Source of the DNA: an uncultured Planctomycetales bacterium
GTDB taxonomy: Bacteria; 4484-113
NCBI GenBank assembly: GCA_964554185.1
Contig: CAZKNJ010000003.1
Span: 2,968 to 66,967 of the forward strand
Length of the DNA: 64,000 nt
Direction: 5' to 3'
The position numbers and the translations under genes are program-made. The notes under the pieces are model-generated. The model made no database searches. It had not been told where the DNA came from and saw only the letters and a program-made list of their open reading frames with translations. How positions within the stretch are numbered: position 1 is the first letter of the stretch; the number at the start of each line of letters is the position of its first letter. Shown here one piece after another: positions 24,848-40,052 of the stretch.

Positions 24848-25393
24848 ATGGCCCGCAGAACCGACGAATGGCCCCCGGAACTGGAAGCGCTGCTCCGCGA
24901 GCACTTCACCGCCGCCGCCGGCTTCTGCCGCTTTCTCGCCGGCAGCGAAGAAGCGGCGAAGGAGTTGCTGGCGGAGGCCGTGGCGTTGGCAGCTATGCGC
25001 TTCCGCCAGTTGCGCGACCGCGGCAAGTTCCGCCCCTGGCTCTACGCCATCATCCGCAACCGCTGGCGCAACACCTACAAGCGCAGGCGACGGGATGCCG
25101 TGATGGCGGAGCTGGAGCGCCTGTCCGCCTCGGCGAACCCGTCCAGGGAAGACTACGACCACAGGCTGGTGGATTACGCCCTGGCGCGGCTGCGTCCGGC
25201 GGAGCGCGAAGCCTTCGTGCTCTTCCACCTGGAAGACCTCTCGCTGAAGGAGGCTGGGGCAGTGCTGGGCGTCCGGCCCGGTGCCGTGAAGGTGCGCCTC
25301 CACCGCGCGCGCAGGCGGCTGGCGGCAGCGCTGGAAGGCGCCTTAGGGTACGCTGAAGAGAAGCTCGGGCCAAAGGAGAAAGAAGATGAGTGA
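24848..25393 (+). CDS. ECF-subfamily RNA polymerase sigma-70 factor
   Basis: 181 aa. Region 2 FRPWLYAIIRNRWRN and region 4 LSLKEAGAVLGVRPGAVKVRLHRARRRL. Confidence 0.85.
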   Translation: MARRTDEWPPELEALLREHFTAAAGFCRFLAGSEEAAKELLAEAVALAAMRFRQLRDRGKFRPWLYAIIRNRWRNTYKRRRRDAVMAELERLSASANPSREDYDHRLVDYALARLRPAEREAFVLFHLEDLSLKEAGAVLGVRPGAVKVRLHRARRRLAAALEGALGYAEEKLGPKEKEDE

Positions 25394-27281
25394 GCTCAAT
25401 CCCGCTGTCCTGGACGCATGGGTGGAGAATACCCGCCAATTTCGGCAAGGCTACCAGCCGGGCTACTCGCTCGACGAGGTGAAAGAATCTGCGTACTTCG
25501 CCAGACGAAAGCTGAGCGCATTTTCGCGGAGGCGCAACCTTGCCATTGCCGCCGTCGCTGCAGTATTACTGGCTGGCGTCTGGATCATCGGCGCGCTTTC
25601 CGAGAGCAACGAGACTCCCGCTCCCGGAAGCTTCTGGGACCGTGCGGGTGGTGGTTTCACCAGTGGTTATGCTGCAATCGGCAATTGGTTCGGTGCCGCG
25701 CTGGAAGTCGGTCAGAAGGAGTATGAGAAGCGCGTAACCGAGGTCTTCCTCAACAAACTCATGACGATGGTCCTGCCGGATGATATCGCAGATAGCATCG
25801 GCAGCTTCGTGGATGAGATAACTGAACCGCTTGACTTGGGGCGCGCCCGTGGGATGGTTGGTGGATTTTCGCAGCAGCCGGGAATTACGGAATACTACCA
25901 GGATATGGTTCAGTTTGGCTGGAGGCCCATCCGCAGCCAGTTGAAGAGCATTGAGGGCTTGCCGCTGGATTCACCGGTGAAGCCTTATGAGCAACTGACT
26001 TCGCGTGAGCGGGCGTTGCTGAGCCCCACTTACACCTATCAACGCTATATGGGCGACAACGGCTCACCGGGCTCCGATATGCTCCCCTTCCGGTTGGCGT
26101 TTCTGTGCACCAACGACCAGCGGGTGGATGAGCGCCTGGACGAACTGGATGCACGCGCTTATGCGCGCAGGCTAATTGGCTCCGAAGGATACTTGGGAAT
26201 GATAGAGGCGCGGCGGGCCTTCTCCCGGGAGGAGGGCGACCGCTGGTTGGCGAAGAATTTCCTGGTGCGGGTAGCCTCTCCCGTCAGCGGCCGGGTCTTT
26301 GAGCCCGACCACCCTGAGTTTTCGCGCGGCAACGGCTACATCAAACGCATAACTGACCAATCTTCAGTACAGCAGCTGGAGAAGGCGGTGATGGATGCCG
26401 GCGTAGTGGAGCTGGATAATATTTACGTGCAGGCGTCCCCCGGCCACGATTGGTCGGCGCTAAAGCAGATTGAGTGGTTCTACTTCAGGGTATTCGGCGA
26501 GGATAGTGTCATAGCGGAAGGTATCATCCCGGTGGACAGCGTGAGCTTCCCCGCTAGCGCTCTGCACACGGAGGATTTCTCCGAGAGGACATTACGCCGC
26601 TTTCGGGAGAGACTTGCCGAGGCGCGCAAACCCGCGTTGGATTATGAGGAGTGGCTGCACGCGCAGACGACTGCCGAGCTGGGGGTCTATGCGGCTGGGC
26701 TCTTGCGGAACACCAGGCTGAACGACGCGCTGAGGATTCCCCTGGACACCTCCGGCGCCAGCAACGATGAGCTGAACGCCGTCAGACGCGGCAATGTGCG
26801 CGGCCTCAAGTCCGATAGCATCTCTGGGCTTCCGCTGGACGACCCGCTGCCTGCGCCGTCAGACTTGATGCAGGACGAGCGCGTGCTGATCGCGACCGCC
26901 TTGAACGGCGACAACTCGGCGCTTAGCTGGTTCAGAGCCACAGGCGCCACAGCCATTTCATCAGTTGCGGACTGGATGCCATACTCCTTCAGTCGCGACC
27001 AGCTAAGGCAGCTGCTGAGGTCTGACAGCGTACAGGGGGGGGGATCGCTGAAGGAATACCTGAGGAAGATCCCGCCGCCTTACGCCTCCGGCACGCCTTA
27101 CGACTTCTTCCTCCCCATCTACCGCGACTTTGAGCCCTACCAGGGGTATTTTGAGCGCATCGTGGAGCCGGAGGCGTTCGCCAAGGTGGAGCGGGCCGCC
27201 GGGCACCCGGTGAAGGACGCTATCTACTTCCGCCTCTACGGCGCCGAGCGCGTCATCGCCGAAGGCGTCTGGGCGGAGTAG
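25386..27281 (+). CDS. membrane-anchored EPWH-GNGY module protein (paralog C); putative cognate anti-sigma factor
   Basis: Its start overlaps the sigma-factor stop (ATGAGTGA). About 50-aa cytoplasmic N-terminus, one TM (LAIAAVAAVLLAGVWIIGAL), then a 560-aa outside domain. Module 1 is VFEPDHPEFSRGNGYIKRI...WFYFRVFGEDSVIAEGI. Degenerate module 2 is FEPYQGYFERI...IYFRLYGAERVIAEGV. Confidence 0.6.
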   Translation: MSELNPAVLDAWVENTRQFRQGYQPGYSLDEVKESAYFARRKLSAFSRRRNLAIAAVAAVLLAGVWIIGALSESNETPAPGSFWDRAGGGFTSGYAAIGNWFGAALEVGQKEYEKRVTEVFLNKLMTMVLPDDIADSIGSFVDEITEPLDLGRARGMVGGFSQQPGITEYYQDMVQFGWRPIRSQLKSIEGLPLDSPVKPYEQLTSRERALLSPTYTYQRYMGDNGSPGSDMLPFRLAFLCTNDQRVDERLDELDARAYARRLIGSEGYLGMIEARRAFSREEGDRWLAKNFLVRVASPVSGRVFEPDHPEFSRGNGYIKRITDQSSVQQLEKAVMDAGVVELDNIYVQASPGHDWSALKQIEWFYFRVFGEDSVIAEGIIPVDSVSFPASALHTEDFSERTLRRFRERLAEARKPALDYEEWLHAQTTAELGVYAAGLLRNTRLNDALRIPLDTSGASNDELNAVRRGNVRGLKSDSISGLPLDDPLPAPSDLMQDERVLIATALNGDNSALSWFRATGATAISSVADWMPYSFSRDQLRQLLRSDSVQGGGSLKEYLRKIPPPYASGTPYDFFLPIYRDFEPYQGYFERIVEPEAFAKVERAAGHPVKDAIYFRLYGAERVIAEGVWAE

Positions 27282-27332: not shown

Positions 27333-28349
27333 TTGGTAGCCGATGACTTCGACAACCGGGAAGCGCGCGAGGAGGGCCTCGCGAGCGAAACCATCAGCCT
27401 GCGGGGCAACCGGGAGCTGAAGGAGCTCCTGGGGGACTTTGATTGCCACCTGCGCCGCCTGCGCTCGGATCTGGGCGTCAAGCTCTACACCAAGGGCCAG
27501 GCGGTTCACATTGTGGGCGCGCCCGAGGACGTGCGCCGCGCCTACAGCGTCATCCACGACCTGCTGCGCATTGTGCGCCGCGAGGGGGAACTGAAGGAAC
27601 AGGACGTTGACGAACGGCTGGCGCAGGAGATGGAGGAGATGCAGCAGGGCGTGCCGGTCAAGGGCAACGAGCTGCTGCCGATGGTGCCCAACGTCAATCC
27701 GCGCACCCCCGGCCAGGAAGAGTACCTTCGCGCCATCGCCGAAAACGACGTGACGCTGTGCTTCGGCCCGGCCGGCACCGGCAAGACCTTCCTCAGCGTC
27801 GCCGCCGCCATTTCGCACTTCAAGCGCGGAATGGTGAACCGGCTGGTGCTCACGCGGCCGGCGGTGGAGGCGGGCGAATCGCTGGGCTTCCTGCCCGGCA
27901 CGCTGGTGGAGAAGGTCAATCCTTACCTCGTCCCGCTGTTTGACGCGCTCAACGACATCCTCGGCTTTGACCGCGCGCGCAAGATGATTGAGCGCGGGGT
28001 GGTGGAAGTCGCGCCGCTGGCGTTCATGCGTGGCCGCAGCCTCAACCACAGCTTCATCATCCTGGACGAGGCGCAGAACACCACTTATCCCCAGATGAAG
28101 ATGTTCCTCACGCGCATGGGGCGGGGGAGCCGCGCGGTGGTCACCGGCGACATCACCCAGATTGACCTGGCGAAGCGCGAGGATTCGGGCTTCGTCTCGG
28201 CGCTGCGCGTGCTGAAGGAGTTCGGCCCCGGCGTCACTACGATTGAGCTGAAGCACTCCGATGTGGTGCGCAACCCGATAGTGCAGCGCATCATTAACGC
28301 CTACGACTGCTTTGAAGGGAAGGAGCGCGACCCGGGAGGCGCGGAGTGA
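27333..28349 (+). CDS. PhoH-like ATPase (YbeZ type)
   Basis: Full-length alignment to the YbeZ architecture. Walker A GPAGTGKTFLSVAAA. LTRPAVEAGESLGFLPG. FIILDEAQNTT. The start must be TTG because no in-frame ATG exists for about 100 codons. Confidence 0.85.
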   Translation: MVADDFDNREAREEGLASETISLRGNRELKELLGDFDCHLRRLRSDLGVKLYTKGQAVHIVGAPEDVRRAYSVIHDLLRIVRREGELKEQDVDERLAQEMEEMQQGVPVKGNELLPMVPNVNPRTPGQEEYLRAIAENDVTLCFGPAGTGKTFLSVAAAISHFKRGMVNRLVLTRPAVEAGESLGFLPGTLVEKVNPYLVPLFDALNDILGFDRARKMIERGVVEVAPLAFMRGRSLNHSFIILDEAQNTTYPQMKMFLTRMGRGSRAVVTGDITQIDLAKREDSGFVSALRVLKEFGPGVTTIELKHSDVVRNPIVQRIINAYDCFEGKERDPGGAE

Positions 28350-30397
28350 TGGCGGAGGAACGCAACAATCGGGCCGGCCGCCGCAAGTGGAAGCCGCCTT
28401 TGGCGCTGACGCAGCTTGCGGGCGCGCTGGTCTTCTTCGCTTTCACCCTCGGCCTGCTGTACGTGCACATGATCCTGTTCCCCGTGCGCCTGGTGCCGGG
28501 GCAGGTGGTTGCTTTTGACATCAAGTCGCCGATGGACACCACCTATGTGGACTCCGCCGAGCTGTCCGCCCTGCGCAAGGGCGGCAAGGCCAGCATCCTG
28601 GATCCCAGCGTGGCCGAGCGGGCGTTGCTGAATATGAGCAACTTCTTCGCCGGCCTGCACCGGGCGCGGCTGGCGGGCGGCGACGCCAACCAGCAGGTGG
28701 AGAAGCTCTCCGGGGACTATGGAGTCCCATCGCAGTTTGTGGCGGAGCTCATCACCTTCTCGGAAGATGAGCTGGACGACGTGCAGAACTACGCGCGTGA
28801 AGTGCTCACCAGCTTCATGCAGACCACGCTGGCGAAAGACGAAATCAGCCAGCTTCAGAACTCCTCAATGGAGTCCATGTCGCTGACCATGCCGGAGAAG
28901 GTGGCGGTGTTCTTCCTGGAGCAGAACATCGTTGAAGCGCCTGATATTCCCGAGGTGGAGAAGCACATCAAGAAGCTGGTCACGCACTCGATTGCTAAGG
29001 GAGAGATAATCCTCGCGGCCGGCGGGATGGTTGACAGCGTGGTGCTGGACAAGCTGGAGGCGGTGGAAAGCGGCCTGTACAAGCAGCGCCACTACAACTT
29101 TGCGGGAATGGCAGTGCTGCTGCTGCTGCTGATGTTGGTATGGTACGCCCACCTACGCTACTACAAGCAACAGATATTCCGCAATCCCGCGCTGTGGGGC
29201 CAGCTCACAGCGATTTTCTTTGTCAGCCTGCTGCTGTCGCTGGCGGTTGGCCGGATGCCGTTCCGTTACGTGTACTATTGCGTGCCTCTCGCAATTGCCG
29301 CCGCGGTGATTGTGCTGGTAACGATGTACGACGCTATCCTGGCGCTGTACTTTGGCATCGGTCTGGCGCTGATAGCCTCCCTGGCGCTCAATTTCAACAG
29401 CAATCTCGCAGCCTACCTGCTGGTCTCCAGCACCTATCCCGTGGTTTTCCTTCATCGCCGATCCACGCCGCGCCATCTAGCGGTTTTCGGCTTCAACCTC
29501 GGGCTGGCGAACCTGGCGCTGGTGCTGGTGGTGATACTTGTATCGGTGGAGACTTTCTCCTGGTGGGCGATTGGATATGCTTTCTTCACCGGCGTGGCGG
29601 CGGCGGTGCTAGCGCTGGGCATCACCCCCATTCTGGAGATGCTCTCGGCGCAATTGACGCCGAGCAAGCTTCAGGCGCTGCTCAACCCGGAGAATCCGAT
29701 GCTCAAGCGGCTGCTGGAGGAGGCTCCCGGCACCTACTTCCACTCAATGGTAATGGCGTCAATGGCGGAGGAGGCCTGCAACGAAATCGGTGCCAACGGC
29801 CTGCTGGCGAAAGTGGGCTGTATGTACCACGACATCGGCAAGCTCAAGCGCCCGGGCTTCTTCGCCGAGAACATCAGTGACCTCAGCAAGAATCCGCACC
29901 AGCACTTGCCGCCGGAGAGCAGCTTCAACATCATCGCCCAGCACATCACCGATGGCCTGGAGCTTGGCCGCAAGGCCGGCCTGCCGTCAGAGGTGCTCGC
30001 ATTCATCCCCGAGCATCACGGCACAACCATCGTGAAGTACTTTTACGAGGAGGCGCGGAAGCGGGCCGAGGCGGACGGCGCATCAGTGGATGAGGATGAT
30101 TTCCGCTACCACGGGCCCAATCCACATGGGCGCGAGACGGCGGTGGTGATGCTGGCGGACACCTGCGAGGCTAAGGTGCGGGCGATGGAGTCTTTCACCG
30201 AACAGGAAGTCTCCGAGACCGTGATGGAGGTGGTTGATTCCAAGGTGAAAGGCGGATACTTGAATGAATCCGGCCTGACCGTTGGCGACATCAACCGGAT
30301 TGCGGGAGCGTTTACGCGCGTCTTGGTGAACCTGCACCACGCCCGGCTGAAATATCCCGAGCAGAACGACACCGGGGTGGCCTCCGTCAGTGATTAG
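28346..30397 (+). CDS. 7TM receptor with intracellular HD hydrolase domain (PgpH/YqfF-like)
   Basis: 683 aa. Extracellular N-terminal domain, a 7-TM block, and HD domain HSMVMASMAEE...YHDIGKLKRP...HHGTT. Overlaps the phoH-like stop. Confidence 0.8.
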   Translation: MMAEERNNRAGRRKWKPPLALTQLAGALVFFAFTLGLLYVHMILFPVRLVPGQVVAFDIKSPMDTTYVDSAELSALRKGGKASILDPSVAERALLNMSNFFAGLHRARLAGGDANQQVEKLSGDYGVPSQFVAELITFSEDELDDVQNYAREVLTSFMQTTLAKDEISQLQNSSMESMSLTMPEKVAVFFLEQNIVEAPDIPEVEKHIKKLVTHSIAKGEIILAAGGMVDSVVLDKLEAVESGLYKQRHYNFAGMAVLLLLLMLVWYAHLRYYKQQIFRNPALWGQLTAIFFVSLLLSLAVGRMPFRYVYYCVPLAIAAAVIVLVTMYDAILALYFGIGLALIASLALNFNSNLAAYLLVSSTYPVVFLHRRSTPRHLAVFGFNLGLANLALVLVVILVSVETFSWWAIGYAFFTGVAAAVLALGITPILEMLSAQLTPSKLQALLNPENPMLKRLLEEAPGTYFHSMVMASMAEEACNEIGANGLLAKVGCMYHDIGKLKRPGFFAENISDLSKNPHQHLPPESSFNIIAQHITDGLELGRKAGLPSEVLAFIPEHHGTTIVKYFYEEARKRAEADGASVDEDDFRYHGPNPHGRETAVVMLADTCEAKVRAMESFTEQEVSETVMEVVDSKVKGGYLNESGLTVGDINRIAGAFTRVLVNLHHARLKYPEQNDTGVASVSD

Positions 30398-30469: not shown

Positions 30470-31519
30470 ATGGTTGCGCCCCGCCAAAACAAGCGCAAGG
30501 AGCCCAAGGCCAAGCCCTCGGTGCTGGTCGGGCTGATTTCGCTCGCAGCTGTCGTCGGCATCGCTGCAGCCGTGTCGGCGTTGCTGACCGGCGGCATGAG
30601 CGATATCCCGGGCCAGGCGCAAACCGCCGTGCAGGATGCGAGTGCGGCAGTTGAGGCTGGCGGCAAAGGCGGGGAACGCAAGCTAAACCGGCAGGCGGTT
30701 ATTGCCGCCAGGGTGTCCTCCATGCTGTCGGAGCTCACGCTTGAACGTGAGCGTCTGGCGGAGTTCAGCACGATGGAGGAAGTCAGCCGCGCGATGCCGA
30801 CCAAGTTCTACCCCTCGCGGGAACGAATCAGGACAGCTCAGCGCGGCTTCTATGAGGGAGTTGCCCAGAGACTCGGGCACATCGCCGGCGAGCCGCTTAC
30901 TGACCCCGTGAAGCCCTATTCGGAGCTGTCGCGGCGGGAGAAGCTGCTTCTTTTCTCCGACTGGGCGGGGACCGACTACATTGACCAGCCGGTGTACGTG
31001 GCATTGATGGCGCGCATGAATATGGCAGACATCAGCTTCGTGCCGGACTTCCATACCTTTGCCTCGCTCTGGACCGAAGCCGATCTGGAGAACCTGGCAG
31101 CCATCCGTGAAGCCTCCGGGGGCGACCACGGCAAGATGCAGATGTTGATTGCCGATGAATGGCTGCCGCTGTTCGTAAGCCCGGTGTCGTATACCTGCTT
31201 TGAGCCCTGGCACAGCGAGTGGGCCGCCGGCCACGGCTTCATCGTAGAGATTGCTGACAAGGGAGAGCGCCAGCGGCTGGTGGAGGCAATCGTCTCAACT
31301 CAGATTGAGATGAGGAGTGCCGCCATTGGCCCGAGTGACGTGGACCGTATGCTGAAAGGGGAGAGTACTGCCAGCCCCGGACCGCAGGAGAGCAGCTATA
31401 ACTATGCGAAGTTCTACTACTACCGCATATACGGCGAGCATGAAGGCTCAGTCATCGCCGAGGGAATCTACCAGATGGACAGCTACGACTGGGTGCAGCG
31501 CCGCTGGACCCGCAACTAG
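30470..31519 (+). CDS. membrane-anchored EPWH-GNGY module protein, paralog D
   Basis: Single N-terminal TM VLVGLISLAAVVGIAAAVSALL. Contains PVKPYSELSRREKLLLF, then CFEPWHSEWAAGHGFIVEI, then FYYYRIYGEHEGSVIAEGI. Confidence 0.6.
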   Translation: MVAPRQNKRKEPKAKPSVLVGLISLAAVVGIAAAVSALLTGGMSDIPGQAQTAVQDASAAVEAGGKGGERKLNRQAVIAARVSSMLSELTLERERLAEFSTMEEVSRAMPTKFYPSRERIRTAQRGFYEGVAQRLGHIAGEPLTDPVKPYSELSRREKLLLFSDWAGTDYIDQPVYVALMARMNMADISFVPDFHTFASLWTEADLENLAAIREASGGDHGKMQMLIADEWLPLFVSPVSYTCFEPWHSEWAAGHGFIVEIADKGERQRLVEAIVSTQIEMRSAAIGPSDVDRMLKGESTASPGPQESSYNYAKFYYYRIYGEHEGSVIAEGIYQMDSYDWVQRRWTRN

Positions 31520-32133
31520 CCCGCCTCCTCGGGATTCCATTTCCACCTTTCTGTGGTCTCAAGGCCGCAGTGCTGCATGATTCGTTCAACCAGCGCGTCG
31601 TTCACATCTTCCAGAGTCCGAGGCTTGTAGTAGTAGCCGATCACCGGTGGCAGCACTACCGCTCCCGCATGCGTGACCCGCAGCATGTTCTCCAGGTGAA
31701 TCGTCGACAGCGGCGTCTCCCGCGCTGCGAGAACGAGCTTGCGCCTTTCCTTCAGTGCAACATCGGCGCACCGCGTTATAAGGCAGTTTGAGTATCCTGC
31801 CGCAATACGCGCGAGCATCCCCATGGAGCAGGGGCAGACAACCATCGCGTCCCAGCTGCAACTGCCGGAGGCGATGAGGCCGAACAGGTCGCCGGGCTCA
31901 TACTGGTGAACCTCCGCGGCCAGAGCGGTTCCCGCGGACTGCATGTCGGCGATCACCGCTTCCAGGCGCGGCTCAACGCCGGTTTCCTGGCGAAAGATCC
32001 TTGAGCCGGTGGGAGAGAACACGAGGTGCAGCGTCAAGTCGCAGGTAAACAGCCGGTGCAGCAGCCGTAGCGCGAGCGGGCCGCAGCTTGCGCCACTCAC
32101 GGCGCAAACAACCGCATGCTTGCCACTTTGCAT
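31516..32133 (-). CDS. ubiX: UbiX/Pad1-family flavin prenyltransferase
   Basis: 205 aa. Aligns along its length with E. coli UbiX (AVSGASCGPLALRLL...VVCPCSMGMLARIA...ADVALKERRKLVLAARETPL). Confidence 0.85.
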   Translation of the reverse strand: MQSGKHAVVCAVSGASCGPLALRLLHRLFTCDLTLHLVFSPTGSRIFRQETGVEPRLEAVIADMQSAGTALAAEVHQYEPGDLFGLIASGSCSWDAMVVCPCSMGMLARIAAGYSNCLITRCADVALKERRKLVLAARETPLSTIHLENMLRVTHAGAVVLPPVIGYYYKPRTLEDVNDALVERIMQHCGLETTERWKWNPEEAG

Positions 32134-32134
32134 C

Positions 32135-35014
32135 CTATGCGCTGGCGCCGGTTATCTGCTTGAACTTCGGGTCCATGTGCAAGCGCTCAAACTCCGGCGC
32201 GTATTTGATAGTTTCGGCCAGGCTGGGCTGGGTCTCCACCGCCTGCTGCAAGTACTCGAGCGCTTTCTCATTCTCGCGCATCAGCACCTGCAAGTGCGCC
32301 ATGCCCATCAACAGCTGCCCGTTCTGCGGGAAGCGCTTCAGGCCATCGTCGTAAGCCTTGCGGGCGCGCTCGTATTCCTTGAGCTGGACCAGCGAGTACG
32401 ACTTGTTCTCGTAAGCAGTCTCGTACTCCGGGTCAAGCTCAACGGCGCGGTCAAAGTGCTCCACCGCTTTGGCGAACTGCTCCAGCTGCGCCAGAATGAC
32501 ACCCTTGTTGAGCCAGGCCTTCTTGTGTGAGGAGTCTAGCTTCACGCACTGGTCAAACGAGTTAATGGCCTTGAGCTGCTCGCCTAGATCGACCTCCGCC
32601 AGCGCGCGCTGGTACCAGACCTCGGGCATCTGCGTGTCAATGTGGAAGATGCGCTCGGTGGCGTCAACCGCCTGCTCGGCCTCATGCAGCATGTTGTGCG
32701 CCGTGGCCTTGCGCAGCAGGAAGTCGGTGTTGGTGGGGTCAACCTTCAGCGCGGCGTCGTATGCGCGGATGGATTGCTTCCAGTGGCTCAGCTCGTCCTC
32801 TGCGCTGCCGAGCTGGAACCAGGCCTTGGCGTCCTCCGGGTTTTCCGATAGGTACTTGGTCAGCCACTCCACCTTGCCCTCATAGTCGCCCAGCTCGCCC
32901 AGCAGCAGCGCCTTGCGGTACCACACGAGGTCGAAGTTCGGATTGATGCTGATGCTGCGGTCAAAGCACTCCAGCGCTTCCGGGCGCATCTCCTTGGCCC
33001 ACTGCACCAGAGCCTTGTTGTACCAGACGCGCGGGTCTTCGGGATTCTTCTCAATGTACAAGTCAATGTACTTGAGCGCTTCATCCTCTTCTTTGAGCCC
33101 GTGCAGCGCGACGGCGAAGTTGTTCCACGTCTCGGTGTCGTCGGGTTCCACTTCCAGGAAGTACTCGTATGTCTCCCTGGCACGCTCATAGCTGCGGGTC
33201 ATCACTTCGGCCACGCCGCGGTTCTTGAAGGCAAAGTCGTCTTCTTCGTTCAGCTCAATCGCCTTATCAAAGAAGGTCATGGCGCGGTGGTCCTGGCCCA
33301 GCTTGCCCAGCAGAATGCCGTTGTTGTACCAGGCTTTGAACAGCTTCGCGTTGGATTCGCGGGCGTTAGTGAAGCACCTTTGGGCCTGCAATTTGCGTCC
33401 TTGTTCGTACAGCACTATTCCGAGGTTGTACCAGGCAGTGCTCAGGTTGGGGGAGGCGGCCAGGCACCGCTCGTAGGCCTCGCGCTCCTTCTCCAGGTTG
33501 TTGATCTTGCTGCAGGTGACGCCCAGATTGTAGAGGACGGTCTCCATTTCCGGCTTGAGCTCCAGCGCCTTTCCCATCGCCTCTACTTCGGCCTGCCAGT
33601 TCTCCTGTTCACGGTATATCAGCCCCTTGAGGATAAAGTACCCGTGGTCCTTCTCCTTCAGGCTAATCGCCTTGTCCACGGCCTTCACCGCTTCGCTGAA
33701 GTTGCCCATCTTGTAGTGCGCCCAGGCCAGCCCGTAGTAGCAGTCGTTGTTCTCCGGGAACATCCCGACAAGCTTGGTGAACTTATTGATCGCGTCCTCG
33801 TAGCTGCCCTTCTTCAGGTCATTGTATGTATGGTTGACCAGCTTGCGCTCCGCCTCCTTGGCGGCCCGCTCCTTGTCTTCCTTCTTCCTGAACATCCCCT
33901 TGGTTTCTTTCTGCCACTGCTCAATGATCACTTCGTAATTCGCGACCAGGAATCCCTCGTCCAGCAGGTCGCGGTGCACCAGCTCCTTAAGCTCAATTGG
34001 GCGATAGCCTTCACGGCGGCGGATGTCGCCGTAAGGGATGATGTTAAACCGCTGGAAGGAGAAGGCTAGCTCCTCCTCAGTTGAGGGAAGCTCCAGGTCG
34101 GCCGCAAGCTGTTCAAACAGGTAATCGCTATCGTCAAGCTCAAAGAGCTTGAAGTCCTTGTTCTTCTCCATTCCGACTCCGAGAAGGTCGGAAATGGACT
34201 CGGGCACCTGCTTGATGTTTCCCTTGTAGGCCCAGAGCAGGCCGCCCTTGAGGACGTCCGGATAATCATGTGTGAGTTCGATCAGCGTGTTCATCACCGA
34301 GTACTCCATGCCGGAGTACCCGATTACGAACAGCCTGTTATTGGCCAGCGATTTTCGCAAGAAGGCCTTCATATCATCGTGGTGCTTAGCCATCCCCTCA
34401 CGGATGTACCGCACGTCATACTTGTCGTAGTCGCCGTGTATCTTGACAACATAGCGCCCTTCGTCCAGGCTCACGAACTTAAGCTCGTCAATGGCGCGAA
34501 TGGTGATGCAGTTGGTGCCGCGCAGGATGTAGTAAGCATCCTCCGCGAGGGTGTCCCAGTTGGTGGTGTACAGCAGAGGGTGGAACTTGCCCGTCTTCAC
34601 GCCGATTACGTACATGAGGTGGCTGGGAGAAGGCTGCTTGCCCTTCAACATTTCCTTGAAGAGCTCCGTGCGCAGGAATACGCTCGGATACTCCTTCTCC
34701 AGCGTGCTCACGTACTTGTACGCCGGGTTGAACCATTTCTGGCGCGATACCCAATCCTGCAGCTCCTCCGCCGTCATTTGCCCGCGCTTCGCCGGGTTGC
34801 TCTTCTCAAAGACCTTGACGACGATGCTGTCCACCATGTCCTGAGCGGTGGGCAGCCCGGCCGAGACGGACACTCCCGCGCCAAAGAACATCTGGTAGTC
34901 CCGGATGTTCTCTAATAGCTTGGTGTACGCCTCTTCAAAGGGTATGACGCATTCGGCTAGGACTTCTTTGCGGTCCCGTTGTTCAACGGCTTTGATTCTG
35001 CGCCTGATTGACAT
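32135..35014 (-). CDS. SIR2_2-like domain fused to ~16 TPR repeats
   Basis: N-terminal roughly 300 aa has SIR2_2 hallmarks: FFGAGVSVSAGLPT, TTNWD and VKIHGDYD. The remainder is canonical 34-aa TPRs (W/Y-N-x-G...). ATG at 35014 with GGAGG 12 nt upstream. The track ORF extends to 35086. Confidence 0.7.
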   Translation of the reverse strand: MSIRRRIKAVEQRDRKEVLAECVIPFEEAYTKLLENIRDYQMFFGAGVSVSAGLPTAQDMVDSIVVKVFEKSNPAKRGQMTAEELQDWVSRQKWFNPAYKYVSTLEKEYPSVFLRTELFKEMLKGKQPSPSHLMYVIGVKTGKFHPLLYTTNWDTLAEDAYYILRGTNCITIRAIDELKFVSLDEGRYVVKIHGDYDKYDVRYIREGMAKHHDDMKAFLRKSLANNRLFVIGYSGMEYSVMNTLIELTHDYPDVLKGGLLWAYKGNIKQVPESISDLLGVGMEKNKDFKLFELDDSDYLFEQLAADLELPSTEEELAFSFQRFNIIPYGDIRRREGYRPIELKELVHRDLLDEGFLVANYEVIIEQWQKETKGMFRKKEDKERAAKEAERKLVNHTYNDLKKGSYEDAINKFTKLVGMFPENNDCYYGLAWAHYKMGNFSEAVKAVDKAISLKEKDHGYFILKGLIYREQENWQAEVEAMGKALELKPEMETVLYNLGVTCSKINNLEKEREAYERCLAASPNLSTAWYNLGIVLYEQGRKLQAQRCFTNARESNAKLFKAWYNNGILLGKLGQDHRAMTFFDKAIELNEEDDFAFKNRGVAEVMTRSYERARETYEYFLEVEPDDTETWNNFAVALHGLKEEDEALKYIDLYIEKNPEDPRVWYNKALVQWAKEMRPEALECFDRSISINPNFDLVWYRKALLLGELGDYEGKVEWLTKYLSENPEDAKAWFQLGSAEDELSHWKQSIRAYDAALKVDPTNTDFLLRKATAHNMLHEAEQAVDATERIFHIDTQMPEVWYQRALAEVDLGEQLKAINSFDQCVKLDSSHKKAWLNKGVILAQLEQFAKAVEHFDRAVELDPEYETAYENKSYSLVQLKEYERARKAYDDGLKRFPQNGQLLMGMAHLQVLMRENEKALEYLQQAVETQPSLAETIKYAPEFERLHMDPKFKQITGASA

Positions 35015-35087
35015 TGGAAGCAGTAACCTCCGTCCCCAAGATGGTAAGACCGGCCGAAATGGCGAGCCTGACACCTGATTATACACT

Positions 35088-35095
35088 TTGCGGGC
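35088..35095 (-). promoter_or_regulatory. candidate -10 (TGTATAAT on minus strand) for the SIR2-TPR gene
   Basis: Forward attataca is the reverse complement of TGTATAAT. Lies 74 nt upstream of the ATG at 35014, in the divergent intergenic region shared with the DUF885 gene. Confidence 0.35.
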
Positions 35096-35200
35096 ACGGG
35101 CGGCAATATGCGCGGAATCGCCCGTTCAGATACGCGCCTCGGCATACAACACGGGCTGGGTACGCGGTTTAAAGCTTCTGCGAGCCTGGCGCGCGCCCTA

Positions 35201-36893: not shown

Positions 36894-39800
36894 CTAATCG
36901 GCGAATGCGAATAGCTTGTAGTCCATGGTGACATACAGAGTGCCGTCTTCAGCGATAGCTTGGCCACCGTAGGTGGAGCGCATATTCGCTTCGTATACCC
37001 ACTTCGTCGTTCCGTCAGGGTTAATGGCGTAAATGTTAGTGTCCATACTGCCGAGGTAAAGGACACCGTCGGCGCCAACAGCAGGAGGATTGTAAATGGG
37101 GCTGTACTGATCAACTCCTACGAACTTGCTCCACTTGAAGTGCCCTTCGCTGTCCATGGCAAACAACGTTCCGTCTCTGGTTATCAGATAGACGCTCCCA
37201 TCCGGGCCAAGCGAGCAGCTAGTCCATGGAATCTTGTTGATTGGGAATGTATACTCCCATGCCAGAGAACCATCCGAATTCAACGAGTAGAGAGACTTAG
37301 AGTGGTCTGAAATGTAGAGCGTACTGTTGTTGCTAACCACAACACCTGGTATGTACGTGCCAGAAGTCTGATATTCCCATAGAAGCTCGCCTTCAACATT
37401 AAAGGCGTACGCCGAGGGATTGGATGTAGTACTGCGGCCACTGACGTATATATCTCCGTTATCTCCTATTGCGGGACTTGTCGGGGCGATATTGCCTATC
37501 GGGTAATACCACTTCTGCATACCAAAGGAGTTCAGAGCATATAGACCAGCATAGCGCGCTTGATAGTAGATGGTACCGTTCGGGCTAACTGCAATATCTC
37601 CCCATGAGCCTGGAGATGTGAAATCCCACTTCCTCGTGCCATCGCAGCTAAACGCAAGAACTTTGGAGCGTATGCTAGCGTAAACCGTACCGTTACCGCC
37701 TAATGCTGGAGCAGTATTGTCACCATCCTCGTTCCGGGCTTTCCATTTCAGCGTGCCATCAGGATTGATGGCACACATGAACGTCTCACCACTACTGCCT
37801 GTAGTCTGGAAGTAGATTGTGCCGTCAGCATCAAGCACAGGCGGGCTGAAGAATCCAATAGGATCACGGTATTCCCACTTGAGAGTAGCCGTCTGTGGAC
37901 CGATGTATGGACTTAGATGCTGGTGTCGCTGGTCTCGTCCATATGTCCACCAGTCGCCTCTACCGGCGGGCAGAACCTGAGCAAAATCCCCATTCCCAGT
38001 ATCCATTACATCCACCGTGATTATTTGCTCGCCAGGAGTGAATACATACCCATTCTTGGACGCCCTTACCGTGTAGCTTCCAGGTTGCATTGCTGACAAG
38101 AGGTAATATCCGTCCGCATCAGTTCTCGAGCTCTTTCCCGAAGGGCTAGCGGTTATGTAAACGTCTGGGAGTCCCGCTCCGTCTGTACCTAAAACCTGGC
38201 CGGAGATGGAGAAGGATTCGTTTGCCGTCTGGAAGGCAAACAGCCACCCATCGTTGTTGCCTACGTACACTGTTCCATCCGGTCCTATGGAAGCATTCCC
38301 GCGGATTGGTGCTCCCGTATCGTAGAACCACTTCAGTTCGCCCGCTGGGCTCAGCGCATAAAACATCCCCGAGTAGTCTCCAAAGTAGACTGTCCCGTCT
38401 CCTCCAATTGTAGGATCGCTTCGGAATTCTTCCTTACAATCAAAACGCCACTTCAGATCACCCGATGATGTCAGTGCAGAAATTGAGTACCCGCTGTTAA
38501 TATAGACGGTTCCGTCTGCAGCAATTGCAGGGGTGAAGTTGACGCCAAAGCTCGTAGGGTACTGCCAATCGAGCGAGCCATCGGGGGAAAGAGCATATAC
38601 ATATGTGTCGCGGCTAGCTATGTAAATTGCGCCATCTGAGGCTATGGAAGGCGCATCACCAATTTCGTACCCGGTTTCGAACATCCACATAACTGAACCG
38701 CTTGGGCTCACCGCATAGAGGTTGTGGTCTCTGCTTCCTACGTATATTTCACCGCTCGGGCCGATTGCAGGACTAGAATATTCACTCATGTTAGAGGTGC
38801 CAACCTGAATGCTCCAAATGAGGTTGCCGTCCACATCTAGCTTCGATAGTACTCCTTCAGAGCTGTAGACGATGATGAAGCCATCACTATTCATAACTGG
38901 CGAGGCGTAGAGATTTCCCACTTCCTGGGATTCCCATCTCAGGAATCCATCTGGACTGATAGCGCATAGGGTAGGACCTGCATTGCTCGTGGCAACATAT
39001 ATTGTACCGTCTGTTCCCACCATTGGGATTGCTGGGGAGTAACCCAGATGGTGCTCCCATAAGGGCATTCCATCTGCATCAAGCGCGTACAGCACATCAT
39101 TGTCACTAGAGAAGTACACTCGTCCCTTTGAGTCTATGACTGGAGTCCCGGCTATTCCGTAAGTGGATCCAATAGGTGGTTCCGCGCAGAACTTCCATTT
39201 CACTGCCCCATTCTGGGCGCCGACGATGGAGCTTCTACCCGTGTGAGCAGCGTCGTGCATATACATCCACCAGTCGCCTTGTCCGGGCGGAATCGGCACC
39301 TGCACGACATTGCTTTCCGCACCCGGCTCACCGACGGCATCCACCGGCTGAACTCTAATCCAGTCGCCGGGATTCAGCGGCAGTGTGAGCTCGAACCGCT
39401 TTCTCCCTTCTCCCCCGGCGGAGGAAAAAGCCACGGTCTCCACCATGGATGGTTCTCCTTCCTGCTCCTCTGAGGCAAGTACTGCGTAGCTTGCTACTTC
39501 ACGCAGTAGATTCGCAGCGATCGCGGTGATGTCCTGAATGTTGATAGTGCCGTCGCCGCTACCATCTATCCACTCGTTGGATTCGTCGGCTTCCTCGCCG
39601 AAGTGAACCGCGAGCGGCGAGATGTCCGCAATCTCCACCATGCCGCTCTGGTCGTAATCACCTGTATTCCGGTACGACCAGGTGAGCGTGTACGTGCCGT
39701 CGCCATTATCAACTATGGCCAGGTCGTCGATGCGATTGCCTTCCCCGCTGGGTGGCTTTGAGGTGATTCTGTGCGCTGGAAGCGTTTCTCCTACCGACCC

Positions 39801-40052
39801 AGCGGAGCTAGCCAGCGCTTCCCGCAGCGCTTCCTTGAGCTGGGTGAAGAGCGCTTTGTCCACCCATACCGGCACCGCCAGCGCCTGCAGCTCCGCTTGG
39901 GCTTCGTCAAGCGACATGGTTTGCTGCACTTGGTTTGACCCGTGCGGCCCTACTTCCGGCAGTTGTCCTACCGGTGCCTTCCTTCCGCCGCACGCGCATA
40001 GCAGCAAAGCAGTCATTGCGGCGATGCATATTGCCCATGTGGGATTCCTCAT
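36894..40052 (-). CDS. secreted lipoprotein with dockerin-like Ca-binding repeat and many PQQ/BamB-type beta-propeller blades
   Basis: 1052 aa. Signal and lipobox LLLCACGG. Dockerin-like segment DGSGDGTINIQDITAIAANLL. More than 20 repeats of the type DGT(V/I)Y(V/F)G..D..LYA(L/V)..DG. A CarboxypepD_reg-like insert. GGAGG RBS. GC is markedly lower than the flanks. Confidence 0.7.
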   Translation of the reverse strand: MRNPTWAICIAAMTALLLCACGGRKAPVGQLPEVGPHGSNQVQQTMSLDEAQAELQALAVPVWVDKALFTQLKEALREALASSAGSVGETLPAHRITSKPPSGEGNRIDDLAIVDNGDGTYTLTWSYRNTGDYDQSGMVEIADISPLAVHFGEEADESNEWIDGSGDGTINIQDITAIAANLLREVASYAVLASEEQEGEPSMVETVAFSSAGGEGRKRFELTLPLNPGDWIRVQPVDAVGEPGAESNVVQVPIPPGQGDWWMYMHDAAHTGRSSIVGAQNGAVKWKFCAEPPIGSTYGIAGTPVIDSKGRVYFSSDNDVLYALDADGMPLWEHHLGYSPAIPMVGTDGTIYVATSNAGPTLCAISPDGFLRWESQEVGNLYASPVMNSDGFIIVYSSEGVLSKLDVDGNLIWSIQVGTSNMSEYSSPAIGPSGEIYVGSRDHNLYAVSPSGSVMWMFETGYEIGDAPSIASDGAIYIASRDTYVYALSPDGSLDWQYPTSFGVNFTPAIAADGTVYINSGYSISALTSSGDLKWRFDCKEEFRSDPTIGGDGTVYFGDYSGMFYALSPAGELKWFYDTGAPIRGNASIGPDGTVYVGNNDGWLFAFQTANESFSISGQVLGTDGAGLPDVYITASPSGKSSRTDADGYYLLSAMQPGSYTVRASKNGYVFTPGEQIITVDVMDTGNGDFAQVLPAGRGDWWTYGRDQRHQHLSPYIGPQTATLKWEYRDPIGFFSPPVLDADGTIYFQTTGSSGETFMCAINPDGTLKWKARNEDGDNTAPALGGNGTVYASIRSKVLAFSCDGTRKWDFTSPGSWGDIAVSPNGTIYYQARYAGLYALNSFGMQKWYYPIGNIAPTSPAIGDNGDIYVSGRSTTSNPSAYAFNVEGELLWEYQTSGTYIPGVVVSNNSTLYISDHSKSLYSLNSDGSLAWEYTFPINKIPWTSCSLGPDGSVYLITRDGTLFAMDSEGHFKWSKFVGVDQYSPIYNPPAVGADGVLYLGSMDTNIYAINPDGTTKWVYEANMRSTYGGQAIAEDGTLYVTMDYKLFAFAD

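Follow-up and report, generated by a model that had tools for sequence, protein, structure and literature searches.

The window, which is the whole 64,000-nt stretch of DNA analysed here, carries on its minus strand a gene for a protein with an N-terminal SIR2 domain and a C-terminal array of tetratricopeptide repeats (TPRs), referred to as SIR2-TPR. It is flanked by ubiX and a gene of the DUF885 family. The features of the locus are summarized in Table 1. The longest open reading frame (32135..35086, minus strand) starts with GTG and encodes 983 aa, and use of an ATG at 35014 yields a protein of 959 aa. All orthologues begin with the common N-terminus MSIRRRIK, and a GGAGG motif is located 12 nt upstream of the ATG. 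The coding sequence was therefore set to begin at this ATG and the GTG start at 35086 was dropped, which confirms the coordinates given in an initial annotation made from the letters alone (the sequence-only reading). Alignment of the protein with 36 full-length orthologues (38-73% identity), to which a genome scan added one more with 89% identity, indicates a real gene and no chance open reading frame. The sequence-only reading had further assigned the gene its own candidate promoter in the divergent intergenic region. Indeed, a promoter-like site is well placed there. However, the scan of this region found one site with 0.9 expected by chance, and the site is therefore compatible with a promoter and is no evidence for one. 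A tRNA scan and an Rfam scan of the window were both empty.

Table 1. Features of the SIR2-TPR locus (positions within the window; residues of SIR2-TPR).
Feature	Position	Strand	Residues	Basis
SIR2-TPR coding sequence	32135..35014	-	959 aa + stop	ORF, orthologue-shared start, domain matches, model (pLDDT 88.7)
Basic N-terminal segment, nearly invariant (MSIRRRIKAVEQRDRKEVLAE...)	34940..35014	-	1-25	37-sequence alignment
SIR2_2 (antiphage-NADase-type) domain	34085..34939	-	26-310	Pfam, PADLOC, phmmer alignment, Foldseek
Predicted catalytic Asn	34559-34561	-	N152	Alignment to GsSir2 N142
Predicted catalytic His	34436-34438	-	H193	Alignment to GsSir2 H186
Linker, mostly extended, then long helix into TPR1	33851..34084	-	311-388	Alignment and model
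16 tandem TPRs, exact 34-residue period, predicted OGT-like superhelix	32219..33850	-	389-932	Model helices, repeat register, Foldseek
C-terminal capping helices and stop codon	32135..32218	-	933-959	Model; NCBIfam 'TPR end-of-group' domain, residues 905-955
Promoter-like -35/-10 pair TTGCCG-17-TATAAT	35078..35106	-		Scan; upstream of the ATG, divergent intergenic region
UbiX-family flavin prenyltransferase gene	31516..32133	-		TIGR00421, 173 bits (cut-off 108.9); 1 nt past SIR2-TPR stop

The SIR2_2 hallmarks on which the sequence-only reading was built were all located, namely FFGAGVSVSAGLPT at residues 43-56, TTNWD at residues 150-154 and VKIHGDYD at residues 190-197. The Pfam family SIR2_2 (PF13289) matched residues 147-253 with 28.4 bits (gathering cut-off 24.5), and the best PADLOC match was the pAgo-associated SIR2 model Aga_SIR2, covering residues 39-311 (E 6e-31). 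In a phmmer alignment, N152 and H193 pair with N142 and H186 of GsSir2 (8in8/8jkz), both of which are catalytic (PMC11452484). The NAD loop corresponds to G45-A46-G47..S49..G53..P55. Within an alignment of 37 sequences G45, G47, S49, P55 and N152 were invariant, and H193 was conserved in 36; conservation of the Asn/His pair, proposed earlier as a check, was thus observed. In the subclade of P0037 the predicted catalytic His193 is replaced by Tyr (VHLYG), and catalysis could therefore be dispensable in some members. The N-terminal segment preceding the domain is also highly conserved (M1, I3, R4, R5, V10, E11, D14, R15, V18, L19 and E21 in at least 90% of the 37 sequences), and its residues 1-10 have low pLDDT in the AlphaFold model.

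Structure prediction of the full-length protein by AlphaFold (pLDDT 88.7, pTM 0.78) placed a Rossmann-type SIR2 fold at about residues 40-306. The SIR2 domain was also modelled alone, since the fold search with the full-length model was dominated by TPR proteins and silent on the overall architecture. The best 50 Foldseek PDB matches of this SIR2-only model (moderate pLDDT of 72) were all SPARSA, DSR2, ThsA, KomC or SIR2-HerA, and no canonical sirtuin was among them. A zinc-binding Cys4 module was not found either, the first 330 residues holding just two cysteines. By sequence comparison and modelled fold, the SIR2 domain groups with the antiphage NADases, being closest to SIR2-APAZ, followed by DSR2, ThsA, KomC and SIR2-HerA. 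The earlier assignment to the NAD-depleting, antiphage type of SIR2 was thereby supported. In the PADLOC check suggested with it, Aga_SIR2 was the best match, and the DSR1, DSR2 and Avs models gave none at E <= 0.1.

The linker between the SIR2 domain and the first TPR contains the invariant residues E315, F320, F323, N324, Y328, D352, G354 and F355. Residues 311-350 reached a pLDDT of ~90 in the full-length model, whereas residues 319-335 remained below 50 in the SIR2-only model, which suggests that the linker may dock on the TPR array. The array itself was recognized by TPR family profiles with E values down to 1e-62, and Foldseek matched it to OGT, SPINDLY and consensus-TPR superhelices. 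Conservation amounts to 0.68 at the concave helix-A positions, 0.55 at the convex helix-B positions and 0.75 in the structural core. The TPR region of the 48% subclade is 11 residues longer than that of the window. A match to MamA (NCBIfam NF040959) with 204.6 bits (cut-off 200) was rejected: it is summed over four separate stretches of the 959-aa protein, the model having 204 positions, and we read it as a repeat artefact of additive scoring and not as orthology. Since the gap between SIR2 domain and TPRs is just 78 residues and a Walker A motif is absent, no NTPase lies in between, and no NTPase family occurs among the 25 Pfam matches listed. Both the approximately 16 repeats and the lack of an intervening NTPase had been correctly recognized in the sequence-only reading. 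SIR2-TPR thus truly joins, within one polypeptide, a SIR2 domain of the antiphage type to a predicted 16-TPR superhelix.

Downstream of SIR2-TPR, ubiX is a probable operon partner, judged from gene order. The adjacency was found in all eight complete loci of the window's subclade (the locus of L029 is cut off) and also in the 37% subclade; in these two subclades, mutually 37% identical, ubiX begins 1 to 17 nt past the SIR2-TPR stop. It is missing from the 48% and 39% subclades, where SIR2-TPR is equally conserved. Flanking genes were conserved within three subclades (8/8, 3/3 and 8/8 complete loci), and both the window and the other loci inspected have housekeeping genes at these positions. 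The sole defence-like flanking gene was an MTase-Mrr fusion in the P0002 clade (L001/L002). PADLOC gave no match for the 10 neighbouring genes in the window, which reveals no defence island. No short pAgo gene adjoins SIR2-TPR, and no TIR gene was found near it.

SIR2-TPR was detected in 21 GTDB species representatives, a count that covers gene-carrying species only, with one match per genome. All of these genomes are MAGs, and we infer that they belong to one candidate lineage, the GTDB phylum 4484-113 ("Ca. Niteriota"). The phylum takes its name from the genome L015 and comprised 12 genomes in November 2023 (PMC11382960). In a profile search of 1.84 billion representative proteins the family formed just 4 clusters at 50% identity, and beyond it the score dropped from 387 to 151 bits. 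This exhaustive search was used in place of a word-index search with the SIR2 domain, which returned 7 matches and missed known orthologues. Relatives of SIR2-TPR were not found on viral contigs, nor were viral or prophage copies, and a literature search for 'SIR2-TPR' found no papers. NCBI MAG assemblies that were reached independently via PgpH also carry SIR2-TPR (5/5). Cluster counts of PgpH and SIR2-TPR are not comparable as a measure of prevalence, as the TPR query fills the limit of 8000 candidates and long genes are often truncated on short contigs; cross-matching of assemblies and pairwise identities were used instead.

In every comparison the identity of SIR2-TPR was higher than that of UbiX, RsmD, a CinA-like protein and PgpH, and the TPR part was more conserved than the neighbouring genes. 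Divergence of SIR2-TPR and PgpH was closely correlated over 15 genome pairs (Pearson r = 0.97), SIR2-TPR being the more conserved protein in all 15. The GC3 of 0.82 is typical of the genome and reflects native codon usage. These sequence comparisons show strong purifying selection on SIR2-TPR. Among the gene-carrying species counted, the signature of patchiness, horizontal transfer or a fast-evolving sensor was not observed; instead, the family is confined to one lineage, with fixed synteny, PgpH congruence and native GC3. SIR2-TPR thus behaves like a strongly conserved core gene that is passed on vertically within one uncultivated phylum, and not like a mobile defence gene. The sequence-only reading had proposed a defence or signalling factor and had itself named a conserved orthologue with fixed synteny as an argument against this proposal. 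Exactly this was found, in 21 species and with a divergence tracking that of PgpH, and PADLOC recognized nothing among the neighbours. The defence part of the proposal was therefore weakened, while signalling stays favoured. Altogether, the anatomy, the catalytic residues and the SIR2 type of the sequence-only reading were supported, and the defence role was not.

Based on the domain composition, the models and the analogy to characterized NADases, we tentatively favour, with slightly less than even confidence, a cytoplasmic, ligand-gated NAD+-consuming enzyme that is now a core, vertically inherited gene of phylum 4484-113. The lumen of the TPR superhelix would be occupied by a conserved protein or peptide, which in the resting state might be the conserved linker of the protein itself. 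A change in occupancy would allow the SIR2 domains to self-associate, as in SPARSA, DSR2 and ThsA, and the associated domains would hydrolyse NAD+ to ADP-ribose and nicotinamide. The resulting fall in NAD+ could slow or arrest growth. Oligomerisation-dependent activation has been described for this type of SIR2 (PMC11452484; PMC12700824). As trigger, an endogenous signal that is itself conserved, such as stress, starvation or proteostasis, appears more likely than a fast-evolving phage protein, because sensor surface and enzyme are more conserved than the housekeeping neighbours and the gene bears no mark of mobility. However, a phage protein can be highly conserved as well; Avs2, for instance, is reported to detect the large terminase (PMC13601566). 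A conserved TPR lumen is therefore no proof of an endogenous ligand. To our knowledge, the SIR2 clade of origin is otherwise known from conflict systems alone, which makes defence the default role by homology.

A more specific version, which we consider possible and rather less than probable, is that an antiphage SIR2 NADase was domesticated into a phylum-wide physiological switch. Here, the ligand monitored by the TPRs would be a conserved protein or peptide of the host, and cleavage of NAD+ would lead to dormancy or another core transition in 'Ca. Niteriota'. Such a switch would correspond, in bacteria, to FAM118 or SARM1 of vertebrates. FAM118A and FAM118B are vertebrate SIR2_2 sirtuins that show the evolutionary pattern which we propose for SIR2-TPR, with an antiphage-type SIR2_2 domain fixed in a lineage-specific clade under vertical inheritance, in which NAD processing and oligomer assembly are retained (PMC12700824). 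They differ from SIR2-TPR in that they lack a TPR array, belong to another domain of life and are not specifically related to it in sequence.

As far as we know, bacterial SIR2_2 NADases are understood almost exclusively as mobile abortive-infection effectors. If fixed throughout the phylum and vertically inherited, SIR2-TPR would depart from this picture. It would represent either a clear bacterial case of immune-module domestication, in which bacterial enzymes of this class would have a role outside immunity, or an immune sensor that a whole phylum has retained in its core genome throughout its history. In both cases, the question is how cells keep NAD-depleting effectors safe and put them to new use, as with FAM118 and SARM1 in animals. 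The compact, NTPase-free design of two modules with a regular TPR sensor would make it easy to search for the ligand and to study how occupancy of a repeat sensor gates a SIR2 domain. Genome scans that rely on architecture alone would wrongly classify this gene as a defence system.

The strongest alternative is a lineage-fixed, single-protein abortive infection system of the DSR2 or Avs5 kind, in which the TPRs would bind a conserved phage structural or replication protein, the SIR2 NADase would be switched on and NAD+ depletion would abort the infection. The sequence and fold of the SIR2 domain, which cluster with antiphage NADases, and the intact predicted catalytic residues speak for it. 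The closest SIR2 is that of the SPARSA protein SIR2-APAZ from Geobacter sulfurreducens (8jkz, 8in8, 8y80; phmmer E 2e-9, PADLOC E 6e-31, TMq 0.62-0.66), with which SIR2-TPR has the NAD loop and the catalytic Asn/His in common. However, the APAZ domain is absent: profile positions 7-287 of 558 match, and the C-terminus consists of TPRs. The overall layout mirrors defence-associated sirtuin 2 (DSR2) of Bacillus subtilis (PMC11850899), with ~1000 aa, an N-terminal SIR2 domain, a long alpha-solenoid and no NTPase. The SIR2 fold matched DSR2 with Foldseek E values of about 1e-8 to 1e-7. In contrast to the regular TPR array, the DSR2 solenoid is composed of MID and a HEAT-like CTD, and DSR2 is described as a phage-triggered defence protein, whereas SIR2-TPR is lineage-fixed and syntenic. 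In Avs5 (AVAST type 5, SIR2-STAND-repeat) a SIR2 effector is likewise combined with a C-terminal TPR-type sensor, and its output is NAD+ hydrolysis (PMC12931631); its central STAND NTPase, which drives oligomerisation, has no equivalent in SIR2-TPR. The PADLOC model of Thoeris ThsA matched residues 148-234 alone (E 7e-5), and neither the SLOG/STALD domain nor the ThsB (TIR) partner was found. Outside the family, the nearest proteins bear modules typical of conflict systems (STAND, Macro, NUDIX-kinase or HEAT/TPR), namely P0106 (SIR2-nSTAND), P0107 (SIR2-HEAT-TPR, which also ends in TPRs), P0108 (SIR2-Macro) and P0113 (SIR2-kinase-NUDIX), with 123-151 bits against the family profile. These unnamed SIR2 fusions and the PADLOC candidate PDC-S65 belong to the SIR2 subclade of SIR2-TPR, but are set apart by the score gap and by other C-terminal modules.

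Several observations stand against such an antiphage system. Besides the missing defence island, the tight packing with ubiX and the silence of the DSR1, DSR2 and Avs models, no viral or prophage copies turned up. Codon usage, synteny and PgpH-congruent divergence give no sign of patchiness or horizontal transfer in a survey that counted only carriers. The sensor also surpasses the housekeeping neighbours in conservation, which immune sensors rarely do. We regard this alternative as less likely than the favoured reading, while taking it seriously.

A SIR2 domain that is no longer a bulk NADase appears quite improbable. It would ADP-ribosylate or deacylate a conserved host client held by the TPRs, or serve as an NAD+- or nucleotide-sensing scaffold. 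A fixed enzyme-substrate pair would fit the finding that both domains and the TPR lumen are extremely conserved. The Tyr at the catalytic His position of one subclade also speaks for this reading. In analogy, OGT and SPINDLY, which are among the best fold matches of the TPR part (Foldseek E about 1e-16, up to 23% identity), have a long, regular TPR superhelix beside a catalytic domain and deliver substrates to it via such arrays. The asparagine ladder of OGT binds extended peptides, and the Asn at TPR position 6 in 9 of the 16 repeats of SIR2-TPR recalls this ladder. OGT and SPINDLY, however, differ in catalytic domain and domain order, which leaves a structural analogy alone. Against client modification, the structural neighbours of the SIR2 domain are all hydrolytic NADases, with no canonical deacylase sirtuin among the best 50, and the Cys content offers no zinc-binding cluster. 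In addition, the closest relative with a solved structure has a blocked acyl-lysine channel (PMC11452484).

A joint function of SIR2-TPR and UbiX, the product of the adjoining gene, is very improbable; SIR2-TPR might, for example, regulate the synthesis of prenyl-FMN or quinone cofactors or act as a scaffold for it. Regarding this reading, the close spacing in two subclades would fit, but SIR2-TPR is just as well conserved in the subclades without it, we know of no biochemical link between SIR2 and UbiX, and inherited gene order alone can explain the adjacency.

The sequence-only reading had proposed that SIR2-TPR, a 959-aa protein, combines an NAD-cleaving SIR2 domain with a long repeat array. 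All three motifs quoted as SIR2_2 hallmarks (FFGAGVSVSAGLPT, TTNWD and VKIHGDYD) are present, and Pfam SIR2_2 scores above its gathering score (28.4 versus 24.5 bits, residues 147-253). The top PADLOC models are Argonaute-associated SIR2 proteins (Aga_SIR2, E 6e-31, residues 39-311); the ThsA model matches marginally, and none of the DSR1, DSR2 and Avs models matches at E <= 0.1. By sequence, the nearest solved structures are SIR2-APAZ chains of Geobacter SPARSA (8jkz, 8in8; E 2e-9), followed by KomC. In the SPARSA alignment, N152 and H193 correspond to N142 and H186, which are catalytic by experiment; A46 and A57 correspond to A26 and A37 in the cofactor loop, where A26L or A37F nearly abolishes NADase activity (PMC11452484). 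A model of the SIR2 part (residues 1-335, pLDDT 72) was compared by fold with the PDB. The 50 best matches comprised only antiphage NADases, namely SPARSA (TMq 0.62-0.66), DSR2, ThsA, KomC and SIR2-HerA, and no canonical deacylase sirtuin.

In an alignment of the window protein with 36 orthologues, G45, G47, S49, P55, T150-T151-N152, D154, E158 and G232-Y233-G235 are invariant, and H193 is kept in 36 of the 37 sequences. The exception, P0037, reads VHLYG at about residues 208-212, with Tyr in place of the catalytic His of K-I-H-G and a His two residues earlier. This variant marks the most divergent subclade (P0037 / L006, L007, L028); every other member, even the distant P0104 and P0105, keeps K.HG. 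Since the HG motif of Avs5 can be replaced by NG with activity kept (PMC12931631), the variant is not interpretable yet. A profile search of 1.84 billion representative proteins resolved the family as four 50%-identity clusters (387-609 bits), beneath which the score drops to 151 bits for the next relatives. In these outsiders SIR2 is fused to an nSTAND NTPase, HEAT plus TPR, Macro, kinase plus NUDIX or unknown C-termini; for all of them the best PADLOC matches are the SIR2 models that also come first for SIR2-TPR. Taken together, the PADLOC, structural and profile-search relatives place the enzyme module by descent in the conflict-system SIR2 clade, with an intact active site. Unrelated SIR2-plus-TPR fusions were also seen (P0107, 1066 aa, SIR2-HEAT-TPR; P0048, 549 aa, SIR2-TPR), indicating that this architecture arose more than once.

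The AlphaFold2 model of the full protein, built on the 37 sequences (pLDDT 88.7, pTM 0.78), consists of a Rossmann-type domain (about residues 40-306), a linker that is mostly extended, a long helix (378-401) and TPR helix pairs. TPR families match with E down to 1e-62 (Pfam). With the register checked, the model contains 16 TPRs of exact 34-residue period from residue 389 to 932, followed by capping helices, in agreement with the roughly 16 repeats counted earlier. The earlier statement that no NTPase lies in between was likewise confirmed: only 78 residues separate the SIR2 domain from the first TPR, and the protein has no Walker A motif. A fold search with the full model returned OGT, SPINDLY, Ctr9, Ski3 and designed consensus-TPR superhelices, so the modelled array is a regular superhelix. 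Conservation, expressed as mean frequency of the commonest residue with all repeats in register over the 37 sequences, was 0.75 in the structural core, 0.68 on the non-structural concave face (helix A positions 2, 5, 6, 9, 12, 13) and 0.55 on the convex face (helix B); 9 of 16 repeats have Asn at position 6. These values show that the lumen is under purifying selection and point to a conserved ligand. Linker residues 311-388 include invariant aromatic/acidic residues (E315, F320, F323, N324, Y328, D352, G354, F355), and linker pLDDT falls from about 90 in the full-length model to below 50 without the TPRs, a hint of docking on the array. In the protein, a conserved linker connects an intact SIR2 active site of the antiphage type with a 16-TPR superhelix that is itself conserved. 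Its source annotation is 'tetratricopeptide repeat protein' only, and a literature search found no paper using the term 'SIR2-TPR'. Identity with MamA (NCBIfam 'equivalog') was rejected, as 204.6 bits against a cut-off of 200 is a sum over four separate TPR stretches; this score illustrates that long TPR arrays risk false positives when annotated automatically.

Scanning 185,579 species, each represented by one genome, revealed orthologues in 21 species representatives, one match per genome and full-length except for one partial at a contig end. All 21 carriers are MAGs, recorded as 'Planctomycetales bacterium', 'bacterium' or UBP7. The orthologue-bearing genome L015 (MVCR01) is 'Planctomycetales bacterium 4484_113', name-giver of the GTDB placeholder phylum 4484-113, 'Ca. 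Niteriota'; L024, of the 48% subclade (subclades are named by identity to the window protein), is a complete genome (CP060262.1). From genome matches rather than phylogenomics, we infer that the whole family lies in this phylum, which counted 12 genomes of up to 4.11 Mb in November 2023, from activated sludge and bioreactors (PMC11382960). No relative was found in IMG/VR viral contigs. Short JGI metagenome contigs carry fragments 100% identical to the window PgpH (P0252) and to part of the SIR2 domain (P0100), so those samples included this organism or one near-identical to it.

SIR2-TPR exceeds its housekeeping neighbours in identity in every comparison, for example 89% versus 77% for UbiX, 72-74% versus 46-52% for neighbours, and 67% versus 41-48% for RsmD, a methyltransferase and a CinA-like protein. 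Its pairwise identities follow those of PgpH, a c-di-AMP phosphodiesterase (r = 0.97 over 15 non-independent pairs from the six genomes where both proteins could be retrieved), and SIR2-TPR is the more conserved in all 15. Five of five NCBI MAG assemblies reached independently via PgpH carry the gene. Its GC3 (0.82) is typical of the window; the lower total GC stems from amino-acid composition. The gene for a UbiX-family flavin prenyltransferase follows by 1 to 17 nt in the 37% subclade and in the window's own (63-89% identity), here in all 8 complete loci (L029 ends at a contig edge). An RsmD-like gene upstream and, one gene downstream, a CinA-N-terminal/COG1058-like gene flank it in all 8 species of the 48% subclade, and QueD/PTPS and a pyridine-nucleotide disulfide oxidoreductase are common to the three loci of the 39% subclade. 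Related loci are flanked by housekeeping genes (such as SRP54, citrate synthase, ETF, HisRS, flagellar genes), and none of the ten genes flanking SIR2-TPR in the window matches a PADLOC model. SIR2-TPR behaves as a core gene passed on by vertical descent, and ubiX is packed closely behind it.

The description of the feature holds in every detail, and the proposal of a defence or signalling factor survives in part. A conserved orthologue in one lineage, with fixed synteny, congruence with PgpH, no defence island and no viral copies, does not support the defence label; fixed synteny of a conserved orthologue is what the sequence-only reading had itself named as refuting it. What is upheld is the biochemical prediction, in which a TPR sensor gates an NAD+-cleaving SIR2. 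The resting protein would be autoinhibited, and changed occupancy of the TPR lumen might permit SIR2 self-association and NAD+ hydrolysis, with loss of NAD+ and arrested growth as the consequence. A change in oligomeric state switches on the solved relatives of this SIR2 type (PMC11452484; PMC12700824). We tentatively favour a conserved endogenous signal as trigger, because the sensor surface matches a housekeeping enzyme in constraint and none of the population-genetic marks of a defence gene are seen. A phage trigger, in line with the descent of the enzyme module, fits both observations less well and is considered somewhat less likely. That the SIR2 domain modifies a client or acts purely as a sensor is improbable, and a functional tie to UbiX, suggested by adjacency, is very improbable, being weakened by two subclades in which SIR2-TPR is no less conserved yet has no ubiX beside it.

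SIR2-TPR would work most like DSR2, which likewise joins SIR2 to a solenoid without an NTPase; matching no DSR1/2 model, SIR2-TPR does not belong to that family. It resembles Avs5 without the STAND module, and having no NTPase is not an Avs5. Its SIR2 domain is closest to that of SPARSA SIR2-APAZ, but APAZ and pAgo are missing, as are the SLOG domain and ThsB of Thoeris, so it is a member of neither system. In evolutionary status it is like vertebrate FAM118, a SIR2_2 clade of antiphage type that has become fixed in a single lineage. SIR2-TPR is a candidate for an abortive-infection effector that has been domesticated, or fixed over the long term, throughout a candidate phylum. The source organism is uncultivated.

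Two starts were considered for the gene. Orthologues share the N-terminal start MSIRRRIK at the position equivalent to an in-frame ATG (35014), which is preceded by a GGAGG at a distance of 12 nt; a promoter-like site has its -10 element within the GTG extension. The GTG start was therefore discarded, and the coding sequence originally proposed is correct. The gene had also been credited with its own candidate promoter; one such site is present, the sole one found, but chance would give about as many (1 seen, 0.9 expected), so it is at most compatible with a promoter role. Residues 1-25 are strongly basic, predicted with low confidence and near-invariant over most of the family; exceptions are the 38-39% subclades, which start with MIEIRR, and P0037, which carries an N-terminal extension. 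Possible roles for this segment are those of a degron, a docking peptide or a contact with nucleic acid.

Coordinates of features in the window and, where a locus is named, in related genomes
Feature	Position	Strand	Remark
SIR2-TPR frame from GTG	32135..35086	-	983 aa
SIR2-TPR coding sequence from ATG	32135..35014	-	959 aa
SIR2-TPR N-terminal segment, residues 1-25	34940..35014	-	MSIRRRIK.VE..DRK.VL.E, alignment
Promoter-like site	35106..35078		TTGCCG-17-TATAAT
PhoH-like ATPase and PgpH-type 7TM-HD genes	27333..30397	+	4-nt overlap
349-aa protein	30470..31519	+	
631-aa protein	25386..27281	+	
PQQ/beta-propeller plus CarboxypepD_reg protein	36894..40052	-	1052 aa
Loci for BshC / methyltransferase-Mrr comparison	L001 11617..13176; L006 11692..13371		
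CinA-N/COG1058-like gene	L005 11703..12410		235 aa; also L018-L024, L027, L004

Several neighbouring genes were noted. The gene order of the 37% subclade is SIR2-TPR, UbiX, BshC (bacillithiol synthesis; TIGR03998, 325 bits). In the 72% subclade, UbiX and BshC are separated by an insertion of a restriction-like N6/N4-methyltransferase-Mrr fusion plus two small ORFs; the fusion is the sole defence-like gene seen near any family member. The COG1058-like protein is named 'nicotinamide mononucleotide deamidase-related' by NCBIfam at a score below cut-off. Among COG1058 enzymes are ADP-ribose pyrophosphatases, whose substrate would be the product of a SIR2 NADase; inherited gene order alone could equally account for its position. 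The PhoH-like/PgpH pair is kept in every related genome looked at. The 349-aa gene, conserved throughout the window's subclade, is convergent with ubiX and shares 4 nt with its end. Neither the 349-aa nor the 631-aa protein has a match in Pfam, NCBIfam or PADLOC. Each shows weak similarity to relatives of the other: the 631-aa protein matches the position of the 349-aa gene in L010, L011 and L017 at 26-30% identity. The PQQ/beta-propeller gene is the clearest compositional outlier of the window (GC3 0.57, GC 0.53, versus GC3 of about 0.75-0.88 in nearly all other genes) and may have been acquired recently. The closest relative, L010, apparently lacks it, along with most of the DUF885 gene, between the SIR2-TPR and MoeA-like genes.
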